In this document: positions 1 through 8,323 of the stretch, in pieces
Position numbering within the stretch: position 1 is the stretch's first letter
Layout of the letters: every line of letters begins with the position of its first letter
Virus record (IMG/VR): IMGVR_UViG_3300032270_000610
Coordinates: 1-35,428 of that record
Direction: 5' to 3' (one strand)
Origin: a virus
Taxonomy: Duplodnaviria > Caudoviricetes
Length of the DNA: 35,428 nucleotides
The notes under the pieces: generated by a model
The model's database searches: none
Told to the model about the DNA's origin: nothing
What the model saw: only the letters and a program-made list of their open reading frames with translations
Program-made: the position numbers and the translations under genes

Positions 1-2425
1 ACTCAAGACGAATATCTCAATTTTCTCCAACGCTTTTGCCGACGAACCGGATGAGGCGATCACGCTGGAGGCATTCTTCCAAGGCGTGAAGGATGGGCGG
101 TGGCAGCGGCAGGTGGACATCCTGCGCGAACACCTCAAGCGCGGTGACGAGCCGCGCTACACAGCCAAGAAGCGCGACCTGCCAGCCGTTACCATTTCAT
201 GCCATTGCCTCTCCCGCGAGCGTGACCTTTCACCCGAGGCGAAAGCGATCACTCACAGTGGGTGGCTGCAAGCGGATTTTGACCTGAAGGATAACCCGAT
301 GCTTGCGGATGATTCCGTGGTGCGCGCCAAGCGGGCGGAACTCCTTGCCGATCCCTATGTGGGTGCGGTTTTCGTGGGTCCATCCGGGCAAGGACTCAAG
401 GCCGTGGTCTCAATCGATACCGAGAAGCACAAGGATTCATGGTTTGCGGCTGAACTCCATTTCCGTGAAAAGCACCGGCTGAGTCTCGACAAGGCGACCA
501 AAGACCCGATGCGCCTCTGCTTTGTCTCCTACGATCCCGAAATGGAGACAGCGGACATTTACCAGCCGATCCCCGTGCCGGACAAGATGCCAGAGCCTGA
601 AGTGTGGCGTCCACCCGTGGAGACGACAGCAGCAGACATTGCCGAGATGCTGCGCTACATCCCACCGCGCCCGGATTACGATACATGGCTCAAAATTGCC
701 TCCGCAGTGTGGAGCGTCCTCCCGATGCTCGACGGTGCGCGCATCCTCCACCAATGGTCCCCAGAAGAGAAGGATGGCGAATACGCATCCAAGCACAAGG
801 CACGCCTCAAGCAGGTGGGAGTCGGCACGCTGGCACACATCGCCAGTGAACATGGATTCGATGCCCGTGAGGCATGGAGGCGGAAACGCTGGGCTGGCCG
901 CATCCGCTTTGCCGACTCGACCCTCGGACCAGGACAAGGGGAAGACCCGCTGGCCGGTGCCGATGTCGCAGCTATCGGAACCGAGATTTCCCGTGAACGC
1001 ATTATGGTGGCCTACGCGCAGGCCCACAAGGGAGACGCCCGCCTATGGGCTGAACTCCGAAAGGGCCTGCGCGTTTGGAACATCCACGCCAAGGTGTGGA
1101 TGACCTACGAGGACGGCTTATGGAGGCGCGACACGGGAAACACGACGCTCCTCGATATATCCGACACACTCACGGAGGTTTATCAGCGGGTAGCCGACTC
1201 GGTGCGGGCCGAAATGAAGGCAAATCCCTGCGATGACGAAAAGAAAGACCCGCGCATCAAGGAAATCAAGGGCCTCGAGGACCGCTGCCACAAACTCTGC
1301 CACTCGGAATATCTGGCTTCAGTCGAGCGCATATCCAAGAGCGAAATGAACCTCCCGGCGACCGCTTTTGATTCCAACCCCGAGATCCTCGTGGTGCTCA
1401 ATGGCACTCTGGATTTTGCCGAGGGCATTTTCCGCGAACATCGCGCATCCGACTACGCGACGACACGCTCGCCAATCAATTTCGACGGGGCCGTGGAGTG
1501 TCCAAAATGGGATGCGTTCCTCAACCGATTCATACCGGATGTCGAGACACGCGTCTATCTGGCTCGTGCTTTTGGCTATTCGCTGACCGGCCGCGTGGAC
1601 AAGGACGCGCTCTTCTTTGCCTACGGCAAGGGAGCGAATGGAAAATCCACCCTTTTCGGTGTGCTCAAAATCCTCCTCGGAGACCTCATGACCACGGTCC
1701 CCATTGCCGCCCTCCTCGCTGCCAAGTCTGATAACAACTTCGATTATTACAAAGCGAGCATGGAGGGAAAGCGCGTCGTTCTTACGGACGAAATCCCCGA
1801 GGGGCGGAAATTGGCCGATAGCCAGGTGAAGGCGATCACCGGCGGCGATGCCATCAATGCCCGCCGGCCATTTGAACAACCCTACGCCTTTTTCCCCACT
1901 CACAAGCTATGGCTCATGGGAAACCACAAGCCGGATGTCCAAGGCACAGACGAGGGAATCTGGCGGCGGGTTCACATGATCCCGTTTACCGTCACGATCC
2001 CCGAGAACGAACGGCGCGAACGCCACGAAATCCTTGCTGAGTTTGAGGCTGAAGCGGCCGGCATCCTCAACTGGGCGATCCGTGGACTCCTCGAAAGCCG
2101 AGACATCGGCCTCAAGCCGCCGCCCCAAGTCGTAGAGGCGACAAGGAACTACCGCGAGGAAAACGACCAGTTCGGCTCCTTCCTCATCGAATGCACGGAG
2201 AAGGACATCACCGGGCGCTGCGGTATCGGATCGCTGGCGAAAACCTACGCCATCTGGTGCGACCAAAACAACGAACAGCCACGCTACCGAGGGACACGCC
2301 AACTCCGAAAAGTGATGTCCGAACGAGGCTACCACATCGAGCCGGACAGGAAGGACCATCCGACCATTCACGGAATCAAACTGAAGATCGAGGAGAAGAA
2401 TGACGCCTTCGGACTCTCTGCCTAA
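1..2425 (+). CDS. P4/D5-family primase-helicase (VirE-N/BT4734-like N-terminus, PriCT-2, D5_N, SF3 helicase); true start probably ATG 35424 across the junction
   Basis: Walker A GKGANGKST, Walker B region VVLTDE, VKAITGGD, KLWLMGNHKP, GIWRR; PriCT-2-like DYDTWLKIASA...WS. The frame is open from base 2 to the listed GTG at 86. Confidence 0.9.
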   Translation, partial: LKTNISIFSNAFADEPDEAITLEAFFQGVKDGRWQRQVDILREHLKRGDEPRYTAKKRDLPAVTISCHCLSRERDLSPEAKAITHSGWLQADFDLKDNPMLADDSVVRAKRAELLADPYVGAVFVGPSGQGLKAVVSIDTEKHKDSWFAAELHFREKHRLSLDKATKDPMRLCFVSYDPEMETADIYQPIPVPDKMPEPEVWRPPVETTAADIAEMLRYIPPRPDYDTWLKIASAVWSVLPMLDGARILHQWSPEEKDGEYASKHKARLKQVGVGTLAHIASEHGFDAREAWRRKRWAGRIRFADSTLGPGQGEDPLAGADVAAIGTEISRERIMVAYAQAHKGDARLWAELRKGLRVWNIHAKVWMTYEDGLWRRDTGNTTLLDISDTLTEVYQRVADSVRAEMKANPCDDEKKDPRIKEIKGLEDRCHKLCHSEYLASVERISKSEMNLPATAFDSNPEILVVLNGTLDFAEGIFREHRASDYATTRSPINFDGAVECPKWDAFLNRFIPDVETRVYLARAFGYSLTGRVDKDALFFAYGKGANGKSTLFGVLKILLGDLMTTVPIAALLAAKSDNNFDYYKASMEGKRVVLTDEIPEGRKLADSQVKAITGGDAINARRPFEQPYAFFPTHKLWLMGNHKPDVQGTDEGIWRRVHMIPFTVTIPENERRERHEILAEFEAEAAGILNWAIRGLLESRDIGLKPPPQVVEATRNYREENDQFGSFLIECTEKDITGRCGIGSLAKTYAIWCDQNNEQPRYRGTRQLRKVMSERGYHIEPDRKDHPTIHGIKLKIEEKNDAFGLSA

Positions 2426-2444
2426 AATGAAAAGATGTCTTCAG

Positions 2445-2655
2445 AATCCGGCGTTTCCCGCGCCGGAAATGCCGGAAAGAAAAAGAATCCTTTTTATTGA
2501 CATACCCAAAAAAGGCATTTTGAGGGCTATTTCTGCCGGAAATGCCGGATTGGCCGGATGTTTCATATTAAATGTTAGGAATCTATTTTTAATACCTCTC
2601 TTCTCCACAGATCTAGGTTTCACAACCCCTCTTTTCCGGCATTTCCGGCACCCCC
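2445..2655. repeat. Iteron-like repeats; probable replication origin
   Basis: GCCGGAAATGCCGGA at 2462 and 2535, an inverted copy at 2633-2650, and an AT-rich stretch between them, directly downstream of the primase-helicase. Confidence 0.6.
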
Positions 2656-2673
2656 GTTTTTTCCCGTTTTCCT

Positions 2674-3057
2674 ATGCCAACCTTCACCCAACACGACCTT
2701 GAACGACTCGGATACACCCTGCAACCAGACGGCTCCTACGCACGAGCCAGTCATCACCCTACACCTGCCCGGATACCTGACCCCAAGCCTCAACCGGCTA
2801 TTCGGCAAACACTGGACTGCCAGCCACCGCGAAAAGCAACTCGCACGGGCCGCGTTACTCTCCGCATTACACGCCACGCACGCCGCCTCCTCGATGCCGA
2901 TAATTTCGCAGGCGGTTGCAAACCTCTCATCGACCAAATTCGATACGCCGCCCTCATCCCGGACGACGACCCGGCCAGCGTCGAACTCCAATTCCGCCAA
3001 GAGAAAGTCGCCAAGAAACACCTCGAAATGACCACCATCGAAATCACGCACCCATGA
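2674..3057 (+). CDS. RusA-like Holliday junction resolvase (catalytic portion)
   Basis: RVTLRITR...LDADNFAGGCKPLIDQ...LIPDDD matches the RusA D-x-D-N...K...D...DD pattern. Confidence 0.72.
   Translation: MPTFTQHDLERLGYTLQPDGSYARASHHPTPARIPDPKPQPAIRQTLDCQPPRKATRTGRVTLRITRHARRLLDADNFAGGCKPLIDQIRYAALIPDDDPASVELQFRQEKVAKKHLEMTTIEITHP
2699..3031 (+). CDS. Overlapping alternative-frame ORF carrying a RusA-like N-terminal segment
   Basis: ITLHLPGYLTPSLNRLFGKHW..HREKQLARAAL resembles the N-terminal PSxN strand-helix of RusA-family proteins. TTG start; the rest of the ORF looks non-coding. Confidence 0.4.
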   Translation: MNDSDTPCNQTAPTHEPVITLHLPGYLTPSLNRLFGKHWTASHREKQLARAALLSALHATHAASSMPIISQAVANLSSTKFDTPPSSRTTTRPASNSNSAKRKSPRNTSK

Positions 3058-3362
3058 AAGAAATTCTCGAAGAAAATAACCGCCTCAAAGCTGAGGTGGA
3101 AAAACTCATCAGCGACAACATGGAGCTGACTGCCGTGATCCGGTCGCTGCGCAGGAATGCCAGGGAAGAAGCCGAACACCACGACCGCATGGTTGGGGAG
3201 ATTGAAAAGGTCTACGATGAACGCGACGAGGCGCGGGCCGTTGCATACGATCTGGCCGTTATCGCCTCACACTGCCTCGGATCGCACGGTTCTGCATTAT
3301 TAACCGAAACATCTGAAAGAATTGCAGACACATTGAAGCGATGGAGGGAGCTAAAGCAATGA
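3054..3362 (+). CDS. Hypothetical coiled-coil protein
   Basis: ATG overlaps the upstream TGA (ATGA coupling); heptad-like sequence with ERDEAR. Confidence 0.7.
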   Translation: MKEILEENNRLKAEVEKLISDNMELTAVIRSLRRNAREEAEHHDRMVGEIEKVYDERDEARAVAYDLAVIASHCLGSHGSALLTETSERIADTLKRWRELKQ

Positions 3363-4072: not shown

Positions 4073-4505
4073 CCTCATACTCGTCAAAGACTCGATCAAC
4101 ACGATCAGCCAACTCCAATTCTGGGAAATACCAGAAGACACCACAAAGGAAAAATGGACTGACGGACACAAACAACTCCTGCTCATGCAGCAGGTAGTCA
4201 GAAAGCTATTGCCAAAGTCGCAATCATTCGGCGTCAAACAATTTGGCCTGGACTATCTGGTTGAGACGGAAGCCCAATTCCAACTGGAATTTGAAATCCC
4301 TCTACCGGCTGAAACCCCAAAGCGCGAAGAGGAAAGCGATGTCATTGATTACCTGGTCAAAGGATTCCAACGCTGGGCCGAGAAGGCTGGCGACATTGAA
4401 GCATGGGAGAAGGACCGCTTGGAACGGGCGCTCGAAATCCTCAAGCCGCTAACCTCAACAGCAGAACGCATTAAAAAGACTCTGCAAAGCAAAACTCTCC
4501 AATGA
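4059..4505 (+). CDS. Hypothetical protein
   Basis: 148-aa helical ORF overlapping the previous gene; last gene of the middle operon. Confidence 0.7.
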   Translation: MQTPDLILVKDSINTISQLQFWEIPEDTTKEKWTDGHKQLLLMQQVVRKLLPKSQSFGVKQFGLDYLVETEAQFQLEFEIPLPAETPKREEESDVIDYLVKGFQRWAEKAGDIEAWEKDRLERALEILKPLTSTAERIKKTLQSKTLQ

Positions 4506-4633
4506 TCCAAGCTATGACACGGACAATACCCGGGGGGGTAGTAGTTACTCCTGACGGGGGGACGGGTGCGGGTATGCGGAAACTTGCAGAGTTTGGCTAG
4601 AGATTGAACAAAAAACCGCAGTTTGCTTTTCAA

Positions 4634-5149
4634 ATGAAACAACAAAACTACCAGATTGAACAGATCGAAACGGGGAGTCTCATCCCCTACGCACGCAACG
4701 CCAAGAAGCACGATGACGCACAGGTGGCCAAGATCGCCGGAAGCATCCGGGAGTTTGGCTTTAACAACCCGGTGTTGATCGATTCGGAAAACGGAATCGT
4801 TGCCGGTCATGGGCGCGTGCTTGCCGCGCAAAAGTTAGGGCTGGCATCCGTGCCGTGCCTCCGGCTGTCGCACCTCACGGACTCGCAACGCCGCGCTTAC
4901 ATCCTCGCCGACAACCGACTCGCCGAGATCGGCGGCGGGTGGGATGAAGAAATGCTCAAGCTCGAGCTGGCGGACCTCGCCGCCTTGGATGTCGATGTTG
5001 CTGAGATTGGGTTTGATGAAACAACACTCCATGAAATCAATTTTGAACCCGGCACAGAATCGGACCAAGGCAAACTCGATCAACTGGAACCGAAAATCGT
5101 GAAATGCCCGCAATGCCAAAAACAATTCGACGCCCGTGAGCAAGTGTGA
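4634..5149 (+). CDS. ParB/Srx N-terminal domain protein with C-terminal CxxC
   Basis: LIPYARNAKKH...IAGSIREFGFNNPVLID...IVAGHGRVLAA...AYILADNRL; C-terminal KCPQCQKQF. Confidence 0.88.
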   Translation: MKQQNYQIEQIETGSLIPYARNAKKHDDAQVAKIAGSIREFGFNNPVLIDSENGIVAGHGRVLAAQKLGLASVPCLRLSHLTDSQRRAYILADNRLAEIGGGWDEEMLKLELADLAALDVDVAEIGFDETTLHEINFEPGTESDQGKLDQLEPKIVKCPQCQKQFDAREQV

Positions 5150-5834
5150 CCTCAAGATTGATTGGGCCACGCATGAGGCGGCAAAGTATGCCTGTGAAAA
5201 TTGGCATTACAGCGGATGTCTCCCAGCTGGAAAATTGGTAAAAGTCGGCGCATGGGAAAACGGAAAATTTATCGGCGTTGTTTTGTTTGGCCGGGGCACA
5301 AATAACCGGATGGCGCAAGCATATAATCTAAAGCAAGACCAAGCTGCCGAACTTGTTCGGATTGCACTTTTAAAGCATTCCACGCCAGTCAGTCGGCTTG
5401 CTGCCATTGCGATGAAATTTCTTAGAAGGGCAAATGAAGGCTTGCGATTGATTGTGTCCTACGCGGACCCAAAGCAAGGGCATCATGGCGGGATATATCA
5501 AGCAGGGAATTGGATTTATGCGGGCAGTTCACAAGCTCAGAGAGAGTTACTGGTCAACGGGATTTTTATGCACAAGCGAAGCGCTTTTTCAAAATTCGGA
5601 ACTGCTTCCCCGTCTGAAATTCATGCAAAGACAGGACTGAAAGTTGAATGGGCACCGCTTGAATGGAAACACATTTACCTCATGCCACTTGACACCGAGA
5701 CAAGACAGAAGATATTAGCACTCGCCAAACCTTATCCCAAACGCGCCGTAAGTGATACTACGGACACGGCAGGCTTCCAGTCTGCAGAGGGCGGCTCAAT
5801 ACCGACCACGGCGCTCCATCTTCCAGTGGCATAA
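5136..5834 (+). CDS. mom: Mu Mom-like GNAT-fold DNA adenine modification enzyme
   Basis: WHYS, GVVLFG, ELVRIAL, IVSYADPKQGHHGGIYQAGNWIYAG and terminal PYPK are Mom-family motifs; located next to ParB-N just before terS. Confidence 0.8.
   Translation: MSKCDLKIDWATHEAAKYACENWHYSGCLPAGKLVKVGAWENGKFIGVVLFGRGTNNRMAQAYNLKQDQAAELVRIALLKHSTPVSRLAAIAMKFLRRANEGLRLIVSYADPKQGHHGGIYQAGNWIYAGSSQAQRELLVNGIFMHKRSAFSKFGTASPSEIHAKTGLKVEWAPLEWKHIYLMPLDTETRQKILALAKPYPKRAVSDTTDTAGFQSAEGGSIPTTALHLPVA
5743..5818 (+). tRNA. Non-canonical tRNA-Gly(TCC)-like gene embedded in the mom 3' end
   Basis: Acceptor stem GCGCCGT/ACGGCGC (7/7 Watson-Crick), D-stem GTG/CAC, anticodon arm GCAGG-CTTCCAG-TCTGC, 4-nt variable loop, T-arm GGCGG-CTCAATA-CCG(A)CC, discriminator T, encoded CCA; 76 nt in total. 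Confidence 0.8.
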
Positions 5835-5846
5835 CCCTTTTCTATT

Positions 5847-6407
5847 ATGCCAAACAAAACCGAAGCCCAGACCGCCACCGTAACCGTGCTGGCAAATATA
5901 TTCAACATCACGCCCGTGCGAGTGCAGCAACTTGCCAAGATGGGGGTTGTGGTAAAATCGGCGCGGGGAACTTATGAGGTATGGCGATCCGTGAAGGGAT
6001 ACATCAAATATCTCCAAGACCGAGCAGCAGGAAAAGGCATGGGGGAAGGAGACGGAGGCGACTACGAAAAGCACCGCACACGCCTCTACGCCGCCCGTGC
6101 TGACGCGCAGGAAGTCATTTCGGCCAAGCTCAAACGAACCGCGCATGATGCCGAGGCCGTGGCCGAGGTGATGAACGACATGGTGGCCAACGCCCGCAGC
6201 CGCATCTTGGCAATCCCCACGCTGGTCGCGCCAAGGGTGGCCGACGAAAGCGATCCGGCAGTGTGTCTGGAAATCATTCGGGACGCCGCGCATGAAGCCC
6301 TCACCGAACTGACGGATTACAACCCTGACAAAGTTGTGGCCCGTTTTTACAAACAACTGGAAGCAGAGCGCAACGAAAGCCCCGAAGCAGACGAGGCGGA
6401 AGAATGA
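5847..6407 (+). CDS. terS: Terminase small subunit (Nu1-like)
   Basis: N-terminal winged HTH (LANIFNITPVRVQQL...GTYEVWRSVKGYIKYL) followed by a coiled coil; directly upstream of terL. Confidence 0.85.
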   Translation: MPNKTEAQTATVTVLANIFNITPVRVQQLAKMGVVVKSARGTYEVWRSVKGYIKYLQDRAAGKGMGEGDGGDYEKHRTRLYAARADAQEVISAKLKRTAHDAEAVAEVMNDMVANARSRILAIPTLVAPRVADESDPAVCLEIIRDAAHEALTELTDYNPDKVVARFYKQLEAERNESPEADEAEE

Positions 6408-8323
6408 CCGTCGAGCAGCAAGAATTGGCCGGCCTCGGGCGGGTGATTTCAAAAACTTGGTCGCCTCCTCCAAAGTGGACGATCAGCGAATGGGCAGACC
6501 ACCGTCGCAAACTCAGCGGAGAGGCGGCAGCGGAGAAAGGGCAATGGCGAACGAACCGCGCCGAATACCAGCGTGGCATCATGGACGCCGTTGCCGATCC
6601 GACTATTGAGCAGGTTGTCGTGATGTCCTCGGCACAGGTGGGAAAAACGGAGGTGCTTCTGAACTGCATCGGCTACTTCGTGGACTTCGACCCCTCGCCC
6701 CTCATGCTCGTGCAGCCGGACGAGGCCATGGCAGAGACATTCAGCAAAGACCGACTCGCGCCGATGTTTCGAGACTCGCCAAGCCTCCGCTCGAAAGTGC
6801 GACCGGCGAAGACACGCGACTCAGGAAACACGATCCTGCACAAAAGATTCCCCGGCGGCCATGTCACGCTTGTGGGTGCGAACGCCCCCAGCGGCCTCGC
6901 CTCGCGCCCGATCCGCATCCTCCTGCTGGATGAGGTGGACCGATACCCCGCGAGCGCGGGAACCGAAGGCGATCCGGTGAACCTTGCCATGGCTCGAACA
7001 AAGAACTTCTGGAACCGGCGCGTGGTCATGGTCTCGAGCCCGGGCGTGAAAGGTCTCTCCCGCATCGAGCGAGCTTTCGAGATTTCCGACCAGCGGCATT
7101 TTCTTGTTCCGTGTCCGCATTGCCAACACGAACACCCGCTGCGGTGGGGGAATGTCGTATGGCAGGACGGACGCCGCGACCTCGCAACCCTCCGGTGTCC
7201 CGCCTGCAACGGCACGATCACCAACGCGCAGAAAAACCAAGCGGTCTCCCGTGGTCGGTGGCAGGCCAGCGCGGGACCGAGCCAGATCGCAGGCTTTCAC
7301 CTTAACGAACTTTACTCCCCCTGGCGCAGCATCGCAGACATCGCCATTGAGCACGGGCGAGCGAAAGACGACCCCTCAACCCTGCAAGTCTGGATTAACA
7401 CCTCGCTGGGCGAAACATGGGAAGAAGGAGGCGAACGCATCAGCGAGCATGCCCTCATCGAACGGTGCGAACCCTACCCGCAGGCCGATGTCCCCGCCCG
7501 TGGCCTTATCCTCACGGCGGGAGTCGATACCCAGCAAGACCGCCTCGAGGTCGAAGTGGTCGCGTGGGCAGGCGGCGAAGAAAGCTGGTCGGTGGCATAC
7601 CATGTCATTCTCGGCGACCCCGACATTCCCGAAGGAACGGCAGGCAGTCCGTGGACGCACCTCACCAACTACCTCCGCAAGCGCTGGACATCAGAGGCAG
7701 GCGGCGAAATGGTCATCGAAACCACCTGCATCGACACCGGCGGCTCGAACACCCAAGCCGTTTACGGCTATGTCAAACGCCACAAGGGAGATCGGGTTTA
7801 CGGCATCAAGGGCCAAGGCGGCCCCGGCTTGCCCATCGTCGGCAACCCAGCCCGCCGCAGAGCAGGAAAGAAAACCACACGCCCCATCGATGTCTACATT
7901 GTCGGAGTCGATTCGGCGAAATCCATTGTTTACAAGCGCCTCCGCATCACCGAACCCGGACCCGGCTATTGCCATTTCCCGCAGGGACGCAGCGCAGAGT
8001 ATTTCAGAGGGCTGACCGCAGAAAAGGCGATCACGAAATTCATCAAAGGATTCCCGCGCCTGGAGTGGCACAAGACATCCGGCGCACGGAACGAACCGCT
8101 CGACTGCCGGGTTTACGCATTCGCCGCGCTTGTGCTACGCGCTCCGCAGTTTGACAAGCTCGCCCTACGGAGGCGGCAGACCATGCCAACGGCCAAGCCC
8201 GCCGAGGCCGAAACGCCCCCTCCTGCGGAACTCCCCGCAGAAGACACCCCCCCACCTCACGCAGACACTGCCGGAAAACGCAGGCGCACCCAGCGCCGTG
8301 GCAGCTTCGTGAATTCATGGTGA
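6404..8323 (+). CDS. terL: Terminase large subunit, lambda gpA family
   Basis: SAQVGKTE Walker A, LLLDEVDRY Walker B, CPHC/CPAC zinc motif, GVDTQQDRLE nuclease motif, NEPLDCRVYA. Confidence 0.96.
   Translation: MTVEQQELAGLGRVISKTWSPPPKWTISEWADHRRKLSGEAAAEKGQWRTNRAEYQRGIMDAVADPTIEQVVVMSSAQVGKTEVLLNCIGYFVDFDPSPLMLVQPDEAMAETFSKDRLAPMFRDSPSLRSKVRPAKTRDSGNTILHKRFPGGHVTLVGANAPSGLASRPIRILLLDEVDRYPASAGTEGDPVNLAMARTKNFWNRRVVMVSSPGVKGLSRIERAFEISDQRHFLVPCPHCQHEHPLRWGNVVWQDGRRDLATLRCPACNGTITNAQKNQAVSRGRWQASAGPSQIAGFHLNELYSPWRSIADIAIEHGRAKDDPSTLQVWINTSLGETWEEGGERISEHALIERCEPYPQADVPARGLILTAGVDTQQDRLEVEVVAWAGGEESWSVAYHVILGDPDIPEGTAGSPWTHLTNYLRKRWTSEAGGEMVIETTCIDTGGSNTQAVYGYVKRHKGDRVYGIKGQGGPGLPIVGNPARRRAGKKTTRPIDVYIVGVDSAKSIVYKRLRITEPGPGYCHFPQGRSAEYFRGLTAEKAITKFIKGFPRLEWHKTSGARNEPLDCRVYAFAALVLRAPQFDKLALRRRQTMPTAKPAEAETPPPAELPAEDTPPPHADTAGKRRRTQRRGSFVNSW
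8227..8269 (+). promoter_or_regulatory. Late promoter motif, copy 1
   Basis: GGAActCCCCGCAGAAGACA, 17-nt spacer, GACACT; lies inside the terL 3' end, upstream of gpW and portal. Confidence 0.7.

Follow-up and report, generated by a model that had tools for sequence, protein, structure and literature searches.

A conserved, deformed tRNA-Gly lies within the end of the mom gene in the viral DNA analysed here and, judging from sequence comparison, it probably serves as a non-translating glycine donor for Mom, in the adenine modification of phage DNA. The DNA in question (henceforth, the window) is a stretch of 35,428 nucleotides corresponding to a whole virus record (G000; Caudoviricetes; 82% complete, linear). 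The element is real, widespread and under strong selection at the RNA level.

The Mom enzyme of phage Mu transfers glycine from Gly-tRNA-Gly to the N6 of adenine, yielding 6-NcmdA (Silva et al. 2026, PMC13219725); the original prediction had referred to this biochemistry, and correctly so. Given that Mom takes glycine from charged tRNA-Gly, the element is likely to be the enzyme's private glycine carrier.

The mom locus and its embedded cloverleaf

The features of the locus are as follows.

4604–5149, + strand: ParB-N domain protein (PF02195, 1.4e-5; phrog_620, 3.5e-52), overlapping the start of mom
5136–5834, + strand: mom, encoding a 232-aa DNA adenine aminoacyl-transferase of the Mom family, with a GNAT fold (PF25680, phrog_1384)
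5689–5716, + strand: predicted sigma70-type promoter, TTGACA (5689–5694) and GATATT (5711–5716) separated by 16 nt
5743–5818, + strand: tRNA-Gly(UCC)-like RNA, 76 nt, overlapping mom codons 203–228
5743–5749/5808–5814, + strand: acceptor stem GCGCCGT/ACGGCGC, 7/7 pairs
5752–5754/5765–5767, + strand: D-stem, 3 bp, pair probability 0.34
5769–5774/5780–5785, + strand: anticodon stem, 6 bp, with a 5-nt loop
5776–5778, + strand: anticodon TCC, read from the sequence
5790–5794/5802–5807, + strand: T-stem GGCGG/CCG(A)CC, with a bulged A at 5805
5815 and 5816–5818, + strand: U73 and CCA, respectively, read from the sequence
5847–6407, + strand: terminase small subunit, terS (phrog_57, 3.7e-31), starting 29 nt past the CCA
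6404–8323, + strand: terminase large subunit gpA (PF05876, PF20454), at the start of the late packaging operon

In the window, genes for a primase, a RusA-like protein, a late activator and the ParB-N protein precede mom, in that order, and terS follows it; downstream of terS are genes for terL (lambda-type), the portal, the capsid, a tail resembling that of P2 and an integrase. ParB-N is the usual upstream partner of mom, the same pairing being found in phiEf11, Sicarius2 and Warren, and a ParB and mom pair also recurs in Dehalococcoides islands (PMC3146451). No terminator-like site was found on the + strand between the CCA of the element and the start of terS.

The mom product matches the Pfam Mom family (PF25680) over residues 6–202 (1.3e-44; 152.7 bits, against a cut-off of 27.1). 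Residues 1–202 make up the enzyme core, which ends in PYPK, while residues 203–232 form a tail spelled by the RNA; as the PF25680 match ends at residue 202, the element begins one base into codon 203. The AlphaFold model of the protein (pLDDT 90.4) has Mu Mom (PDB 8bv8) as its best Foldseek match (E 1.8e-11, TM 0.70–0.73). In the alignment to 8bv8, H24, Y25 and R75 fall on Mu H58, Y59 and R111, and S86, D111, K113 and Y121 on Mu S124, D149, R151 and Y159, so that six of the seven named Mu residues are identical. The seventh, Mu R151, is Lys113 here; it is reported as essential in the Mu enzyme (PMC13219725). The window Mom may modify adenine as Mu Mom does.

Predicted pair probabilities were 0.89–1.0 in the acceptor and anticodon stems of the window copy. 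Canonical elongator tRNAs have U8, A14, G18G19, T54-U55-C56, an uninterrupted 5-bp T-stem and an unpaired anticodon loop of 7 nt. The window copy departs from this RF00005-type consensus: U8, A14, G18G19 and T54 are missing, and a C32-G38 pair extends the anticodon stem to 6 bp and leaves a 5-nt loop.

The cloverleaf had originally been predicted at 5743–5818, with a perfect 7-bp acceptor stem, anticodon TCC, a discriminator T and an encoded CCA, all of which proved exact. The tRNA-Gly identity elements attributed to it are present as well, although the structure is more non-canonical than had been described, owing to the 6-bp anticodon stem and the bulged A. The prediction also held that routine annotation would overlook such an element, and indeed ARAGORN (0 tRNAs in the whole window) and Rfam (no tRNA match at E ≤ 1 in positions 4500–7000) both miss it.

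Taken alone, the window sequence is weak evidence for a tRNA-like RNA. The single-sequence fold had a z-score of –1.59 and 13 of 200 shuffles were equally stable, hence a non-significant result, and an acceptor-only descriptor gave 16 matches in 200 randomised copies of the window. A blastn search with positions 5680–5830 gave no match among annotated phages, and no repeats flanking the element were found in the window.

Selection on the RNA and linkage to mom

A search with the Mom core returned 525 viral relatives, the best 80 of which were kept, and the element was present in all of these (80/80). The descriptor located it directly after the Mom core in 77 of the best 80; a covariance model recovered the remaining three, namely L004 and L005 (where it follows a second, tandem mom) and L024 (19 nt downstream). 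The descriptor matches in L004 and L005 were spurious and were left out of the counts, the true copies being those after the second mom. In both loci (positions 2001–3297) the first gene of the tandem pair ends just past PYPK without an element, and the second carries it at 3222–3297.

Covariation was evaluated on 49 distinct copies, the window included (the covariance-model score of the window is a matter of construction). Invariant in this set were G1 C2 G3, C35 C36, C70 G71 C72 U73 and the CCA, together with five T-stem pairing positions and the bulged A. Pairing was retained in 99.4% of 781 cells, with two-sided changes at 11 of 16 pairs; none of 500 shuffles equalled this covariation, and slid structures dropped to 29–42%. 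RNAalifold, unprompted, returned the whole cloverleaf from 32 long-form copies of our own selection (21 pairs, 16 with two-sided changes), the consensus showing a 3-bp D-stem, a 6-bp anticodon stem and a bulged T-stem.

These comparative data exclude chance. On another alignment (A3), two of five covariation measures were no better than shuffles; covariation in A3 is partly built in by the search pattern and the model-fitted alignment, and our conclusions rest on the 49-copy set and on RNAalifold.

The reading frame of the CCA varies among the relatives, all three frames being used, and the tail peptide changes with it, meaning that selection acts on the RNA and not on the peptide. Protein-level conservation as the origin of the element was rejected because the tail peptides are read in three frames. 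The comparative check on mom homologues that had been proposed along with the original prediction was thus favourable to it, with enrichment of Gly identity, covariation in the stems and no conservation of the peptide.

Linkage to mom was also assessed with an RNA-only pattern, consisting of the bulged T-arm and the acceptor 3′ strand and using no protein information. Its matches are estimated at ~1,700 viral and ~2,900 metagenomic stretches, and 120 loci of each were listed. All but one of the viral matches listed (121/122) are cloverleafs, and 114 of the 121 adjoin a match to the Mom profile, with mom upstream in 92 (element 3′) and downstream in 22 (element 5′). The remaining viral cloverleafs listed comprise four with too short a flank and three with no mom nearby, two of these three having mom elsewhere on the contig.

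The Mom profile was trained partly on viral loci; Pfam independently gives Mom for most of the weak cases, and the metagenomic set was not used for training. In that set, 79 of the 96 cloverleafs listed adjoin mom, six have short flanks and 11 are without mom; 5′ elements number 20 among the metagenomic relatives listed. Non-cloverleaf matches behaved otherwise, none of the 27 listed metagenomic ones adjoining mom. G1 C2 G3, which lie outside the search pattern, occurred in 114 of the 115 distinct viral copies listed. By position, the 98 Mom-linked matches listed fall inside the 3′ end of mom (68), across its stop codon (10), after the gene (1) or at its 5′ end (19).

Two different copies of the element occur in tandem in L127, L186, L420 and L427 and with protein P0033, the spacing being 1 nt in L420 and L427. 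L220 (2160–2233) has a canonical tRNA-Met whose start is 14 nt beyond the element, an arrangement like that of a tRNA operon. A stand-alone copy (L107, 558–631, – strand) belongs to an 83%-complete record in which no Mom match was found. In L124 and L388 the element comes after a glycosyltransferase-like gene, with mom ~1.3 kb upstream in the L124 contig, an arrangement that suggests a larger DNA-modification cluster. Two metagenomic loci, L437 and L457, have near-identical D-armless copies without mom, each preceded by CCTCAG; the L457 copy stands directly after a transposase-like ORF, and both copies were possibly moved by a mobile element, or are the target of one. The element thus behaves as a free gene, occurring at either mom end, in three frames, in tandem and stand-alone copies and next to a tRNA-Met.

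The published set of bacterial Gly identity elements comprises U73, G1-C72, C2-G71, G3-C70, C35 and C36 (PMC9976931, Table 1). U73 and the three base pairs are found in the window and in 49/49 distinct copies, while C35 and C36 are invariant in the 49 and occur in 81/83 seven-nt loops of the pattern-first set, which contains 102 model-aligned copies from 100 of the 120 viral loci listed. What is conserved (G1-C72, C2-G71, G3-C70, C35, C36 and U73) is therefore what that paper gives as the bacterial Gly identity set.

Position 34 is free in the 49 copies, where the anticodon is TCC in 27, ACC in 18, CCC in two and GCC in one, the last copy having a shortened arm that is mis-registered. Such freedom would be allowed by the EcGlyRS-tRNA structure, which has one hydrogen bond to G34 and a specific reading of C35 and C36 (PMC9908026). 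The invariance of C35 and C36 while the other loop bases are free points to charging by GlyRS.

Decoding features, in contrast, are lost. In the 49 distinct copies, U33 is found in 22, a TTCRA T-loop in six and U8 in none; 32:38 is paired in all 49 and the D-arm is reduced to 11–12 nt in 30. Anticodon loops in the 102 pattern-first copies are of 7 nt in 83, of 8 nt in 15 and of other lengths in four; the 83 seven-nt loops present ACC (39), TCC (36), CCC (6) or other anticodons (2), and 76 of them have 32:38 paired.

The bulged A lies between pairs 50-64 and 51-63, the order along the T-stem being G-C, G-C, bulged A, C-G. The affinity for EF-Tu is set by T-stem pairs 49-65, 50-64 and 51-63 (PMC3239215), and by analogy we infer that the bulged A would weaken EF-Tu binding. 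The bulge is absent in L225, L370 and Warren, and in Sicarius2 it is paired into a 6-bp stem. Near-canonical copies exist, in that 9 of 20 selected relative loci pass the Rfam tRNA model or ARAGORN.

Distribution of the element and a predicted promoter

In cellular genomes the element was found in 23 of 36 mom loci, while 12 are without it and one is cut short. The covariance model at E ≤ 1 accounts for 20 of the 23; L225 was recognised by ARAGORN and Rfam, and inspection by eye added L233 and L243. The 3′ end is visible in 22 of the cellular copies, of which 21 retain U73 but nine encode the CCA, the pattern to be expected if the RNA is completed by CCA addition. The sole exception to U73 is L225 (2100–2177), from Methanobacterium ferruginis, which combines A73 with an unbulged T-stem and an abnormal anticodon loop; A73 is the archaeal Gly discriminator (PMC9976931). 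ARAGORN calls L225 a tRNA-Val, probably a register error. The same three features recur in L370 and L372 (1292–1365), and L370 groups with the Methanobacterium copy at support 89 in a quick tree; the A73 observation rests on one named host.

A set centred on phiEf11, which overlaps the best-80 set, had the element in 48/80 loci and lacked it in 32/80; the model found 46 of the 48, and ARAGORN, Rfam and an identical sequence pointed to L370 and L372. The element was not found in phage Mu, in any of 16 Mu-like loci searched (of 44 fetched) or in four further mom loci searched (0/4), nor was it seen in 10 of 12 named phage records. In Arthrobacter phage Sicarius2 (L083, 1301–1372), ARAGORN reports a tRNA-Gly(tcc) that spans the stop codon of mom and is absent from the GenBank annotation; this copy has a 6-bp T-stem, and its CCA is not encoded. 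In Warren, a tRNA-Gly(CCC) is annotated 33 nt beyond mom and on the other strand. Plasmids gave five Mom-like matches.

Being missing from one third of the cellular loci (12/36) and from the 32 phiEf11-centred loci, the element qualifies as accessory. In the quick tree, built from 57 hand-picked Mom proteins, it appears in separate clades and at either mom end, and one clade with a 3′ element joins Mu Mom with an SH-aLRT support of 100%. Gain, loss or movement of this accessory has thus occurred repeatedly.

In element-less phiEf11-like loci (L294, 1307–1440; L302; L303–L307), another structured region, conserved and covarying, follows mom, consisting of a hairpin and then a multistem with a CCACGCG core (two-sided changes at 13 of 32 pairs, n = 7). 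This region gave no Rfam match at the gathering score.

From the candidate promoter inside mom, transcription is predicted to start ~20 nt upstream of the element. A scan of the window gave this one site and shuffles give 1.1, which by itself is chance level. Across homologues, 30 of 51 distinct upstream windows contain a promoter-like site, compared with 5 of 204 control windows taken nearer the start of the gene, and its register is the same in nearly all homologues that bear it.

With the protein held fixed, the –35 score was 4.88 against a synonymous null of 4.06 ± 0.10, and the –10 score 3.84 against 3.27 ± 0.07 (43 sequences at <85% identity; 0/2000 resamplings reached the observed scores). 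The codons that build the boxes ranked 1, 2, 6 and 24 of 147 columns in synonymous bias, and 1, 4, 5 and 10 of 137 after de-duplication at 75%. Codon statistics of this kind show selection on promoter-like codons in mom.

A promoter score of at least 9/12 was reached by 37 of 91 element-bearing mom genes (54/91 scoring below) and by 0 of 20 element-less ones, a small control in which 8/20 share the Leu-Asp residues (P = 0.02), with related sequences and with 9/193 loci unparsed. Ten copies from cellular genomes showed no promoter signal. The stand-alone copies L107 (12/12), L464 and L175 each have a consensus promoter of their own.

The internal promoter could serve terS instead. If it is real, it removes the main objection to a separate RNA, namely, that excising an embedded tRNA would destroy the mom message, and a single stretch is then predicted to be triple-coded, for protein, promoter and tRNA.

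Possible roles of the element and related systems

As a glycine donor for Mom, the element would be transcribed from ~5723 and/or cut out of the late operon transcript by tRNA-processing nucleases of the host, after which the host GlyRS would charge the matured RNA with glycine. The T-stem bulge would make for weak EF-Tu binding, allowing escape from both EF-Tu and the ribosome. The window Mom would then use the charged element, so that the translational pool of Gly-tRNA is spared and competition with EF-Tu avoided, while the C-terminal peptide of the protein would be a by-product of read-through.

This reading is favoured by the invariance of the GlyRS set and of U73 even where the CCA is not encoded, by the loss of decoding features, by linkage to mom in both directions of search, by the free-gene behaviour of the element, by the promoter signal and by the clade that groups with Mu. 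Other observations speak against it: the element is absent from many mom loci, the T-stem bulge is not universal and a Lys occupies the position of Mu's essential R151; moreover, without EF-Tu to shield it, a glycylated RNA would be open to attack by D-aminoacyl-tRNA deacylase (PMC4880308). In addition, Mu Mom is active with host tRNAs, accepting all three E. coli Gly isoacceptors and rejecting Gly-tRNA-Ala, and it is speculated in the same paper that Mom reads only the acceptor end of the tRNA (PMC13219725). Since Mu Mom works with host isoacceptors and Mu is without the element, the RNA is not required for Mom chemistry.

It is possible, although we would not count on it, that these loci form a widespread two-part phage system, in which an orthogonal carrier RNA, lying within the enzyme's gene under its own promoter and reduced to the features that GlyRS reads, is invisible to EF-Tu and the ribosome, preferred over host tRNA by these Mom enzymes and retuned to host identity rules (A73 in an archaeal provirus). 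Were this two-part reading true, bacteria would have a natural aminoacyl carrier without a D-arm, and DNA chemistry its first dedicated tRNA.

Alternatively, the element might be a cis-acting tRNA mimic in the mRNA, controlling expression of mom or of the terminase either as a site of processing or as one to which Mom or GlyRS binds. We regard this as unlikely. Overlap with the CDS at either end is indeed far commoner than a free position in the 98 Mom-linked matches listed, and there is no terminator before terS; a cut at 5743 would remove the mom stop codon or, in the 5′ clades, the start. However, position switches between mom ends and clades, tandem copies and stand-alone promoter-driven copies exist, U73 is kept where the CCA needs post-transcriptional addition, and an internal promoter would uncouple the RNA from the mom message.

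A host-type sigma70 promoter would presumably produce the RNA before, or without, late Mom expression, and the acceptor end, which Mom is thought to recognise (PMC13219725), is perfectly conserved. Both points would suit an inhibitor or decoy, which might bind Mom without donating, so quieting a host-toxic enzyme, or soak up host enzymes that attack tRNA-Gly. Such a function is quite unlikely, because C35 and C36 are invariant in an otherwise free loop, which points to GlyRS charging, whereas Mom is speculated to read the acceptor only (PMC13219725), and because a decoy for tRNA-attacking enzymes needs no linkage to mom.

Very unlikely is an ordinary supplementary tRNA-Gly, sustaining translation while Mom drains the host pool, despite the near-canonical copies that pass the Rfam tRNA cut-off or ARAGORN, the annotated tRNA-Gly(CCC) after mom in Warren and the share of GGA among Gly codons (135 of 504 in 15 window ORFs). 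Most relatives, like the window copy, are without U8, a conserved U33, the T-loop TTC and often the D-arm, and there are ACC anticodons, loops of 5 and 8 nt and a bulge in the helix bound by EF-Tu.

A decaying relic, whether a host tRNA-Gly reduced to an att-site fragment or pseudogene or a side effect of protein conservation, is hardly credible, for all that the window encodes a tyrosine integrase and two metagenomic copies (L437 and L457) are without mom, one of them after a transposase-like ORF: compensatory changes in all stems largely refute it, three reading frames are used, and the element sits tightly between mom and terS, at a distance of 25 kb from the integrase, with no flanking repeats.

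The glycine-donor reading, if true, would explain how a large and fast supply of activated glycine for whole-genome modification is obtained without a contest with EF-Tu or starvation of translation. It would also extend the strategy of dedicated non-translating tRNAs from staphylococcal cell walls to viral DNA modification, in many clades, and it offers a testable function for the pseudo-tRNA described in Dehalococcoides in 2011 (PMC3146451). Furthermore, a large RNA family missed by standard finders is now exposed, whose D-armless forms, 5- and 8-nt loops and tolerance of any N34 amount to a natural mutational scan of what GlyRS needs.

Mu Mom (PDB 8bv8) shares family and fold with the window enzyme, as well as all but one of the seven active-site residues, and the Gly identity of the element matches Mu's proven donor (PMC13219725); Mu differs in that it borrows a host tRNA and encodes no such RNA. 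In PMC13219725, main-text terms and two supplements yielded no mention of a co-encoded RNA, the only 'tRNA gene' passage concerning E. coli clones, and no mention was found in the passages of the 2023 Mom preprint or of PMC7261163. More generally, no published donor role for a mom-linked tRNA-like RNA was found in the mostly open-access literature covered.

An embedded tRNA-Gly-like locus in mom has been known since 2011, when McMurdie et al. (PMC3146451) described a conserved 76-bp tRNA-Gly-like 'pseudo-tRNA' in the first 150 bp of a Dehalococcoides mom homologue, in ssrA genomic islands (16 islands and one fosmid); the passages of that paper propose no function for it. The two loci are alike in the length of 76 nt, the tRNA-Gly-like fold, the anticodon ('DCC' there) and the placement of mom after a ParB gene, a likeness by description. 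They differ in that the Dehalococcoides element is in the 5′ region of mom, whereas ours is at the 3′ end and has a predicted internal promoter. The window element also belongs to a family estimated at ~1,700 viral stretches.

The selC* tRNA-Cys with its bulged A51a (PMC7609411) is a further bacterial tRNA that departs from the canonical form, its T-stem likewise containing an unpaired A; it differs by its 8/4 acceptor branch, its Cys identity and a bulge on the 5′ strand, and the relevant passage of that paper reports no link to DNA modification.

Similar in function would be the non-proteogenic tRNA-Gly species of S. aureus, which have TGC/TGT T-loops, a 6-bp anticodon stem, a 5-nt loop and weak EF-Tu binding (PMC7826273, PMC3239215) and are preferentially used by the Fem transferases (PMC7826273). 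These RNAs (NP1-3) and the element both keep GlyRS identity, replace the T-loop TTC, combine a 6-bp anticodon stem with a 5-nt loop (PMC7826273) and alter the T-stem to which EF-Tu binds, and in both cases the partner is a GNAT-fold transferase (PMC7826273, PMC3239215). In contrast to the element, NP1-3 are free chromosomal genes confined to staphylococci, retain the D-arm and feed peptidoglycan rather than DNA (PMC7826273), and they weaken EF-Tu binding through A-U pairs (A49-U65, U50-A64, A51-U63) in place of a bulge (PMC3239215). By analogy, then, the element would work like a non-proteogenic tRNA-Gly, while being neither a member of the staphylococcal lineage nor a canonical tRNA.
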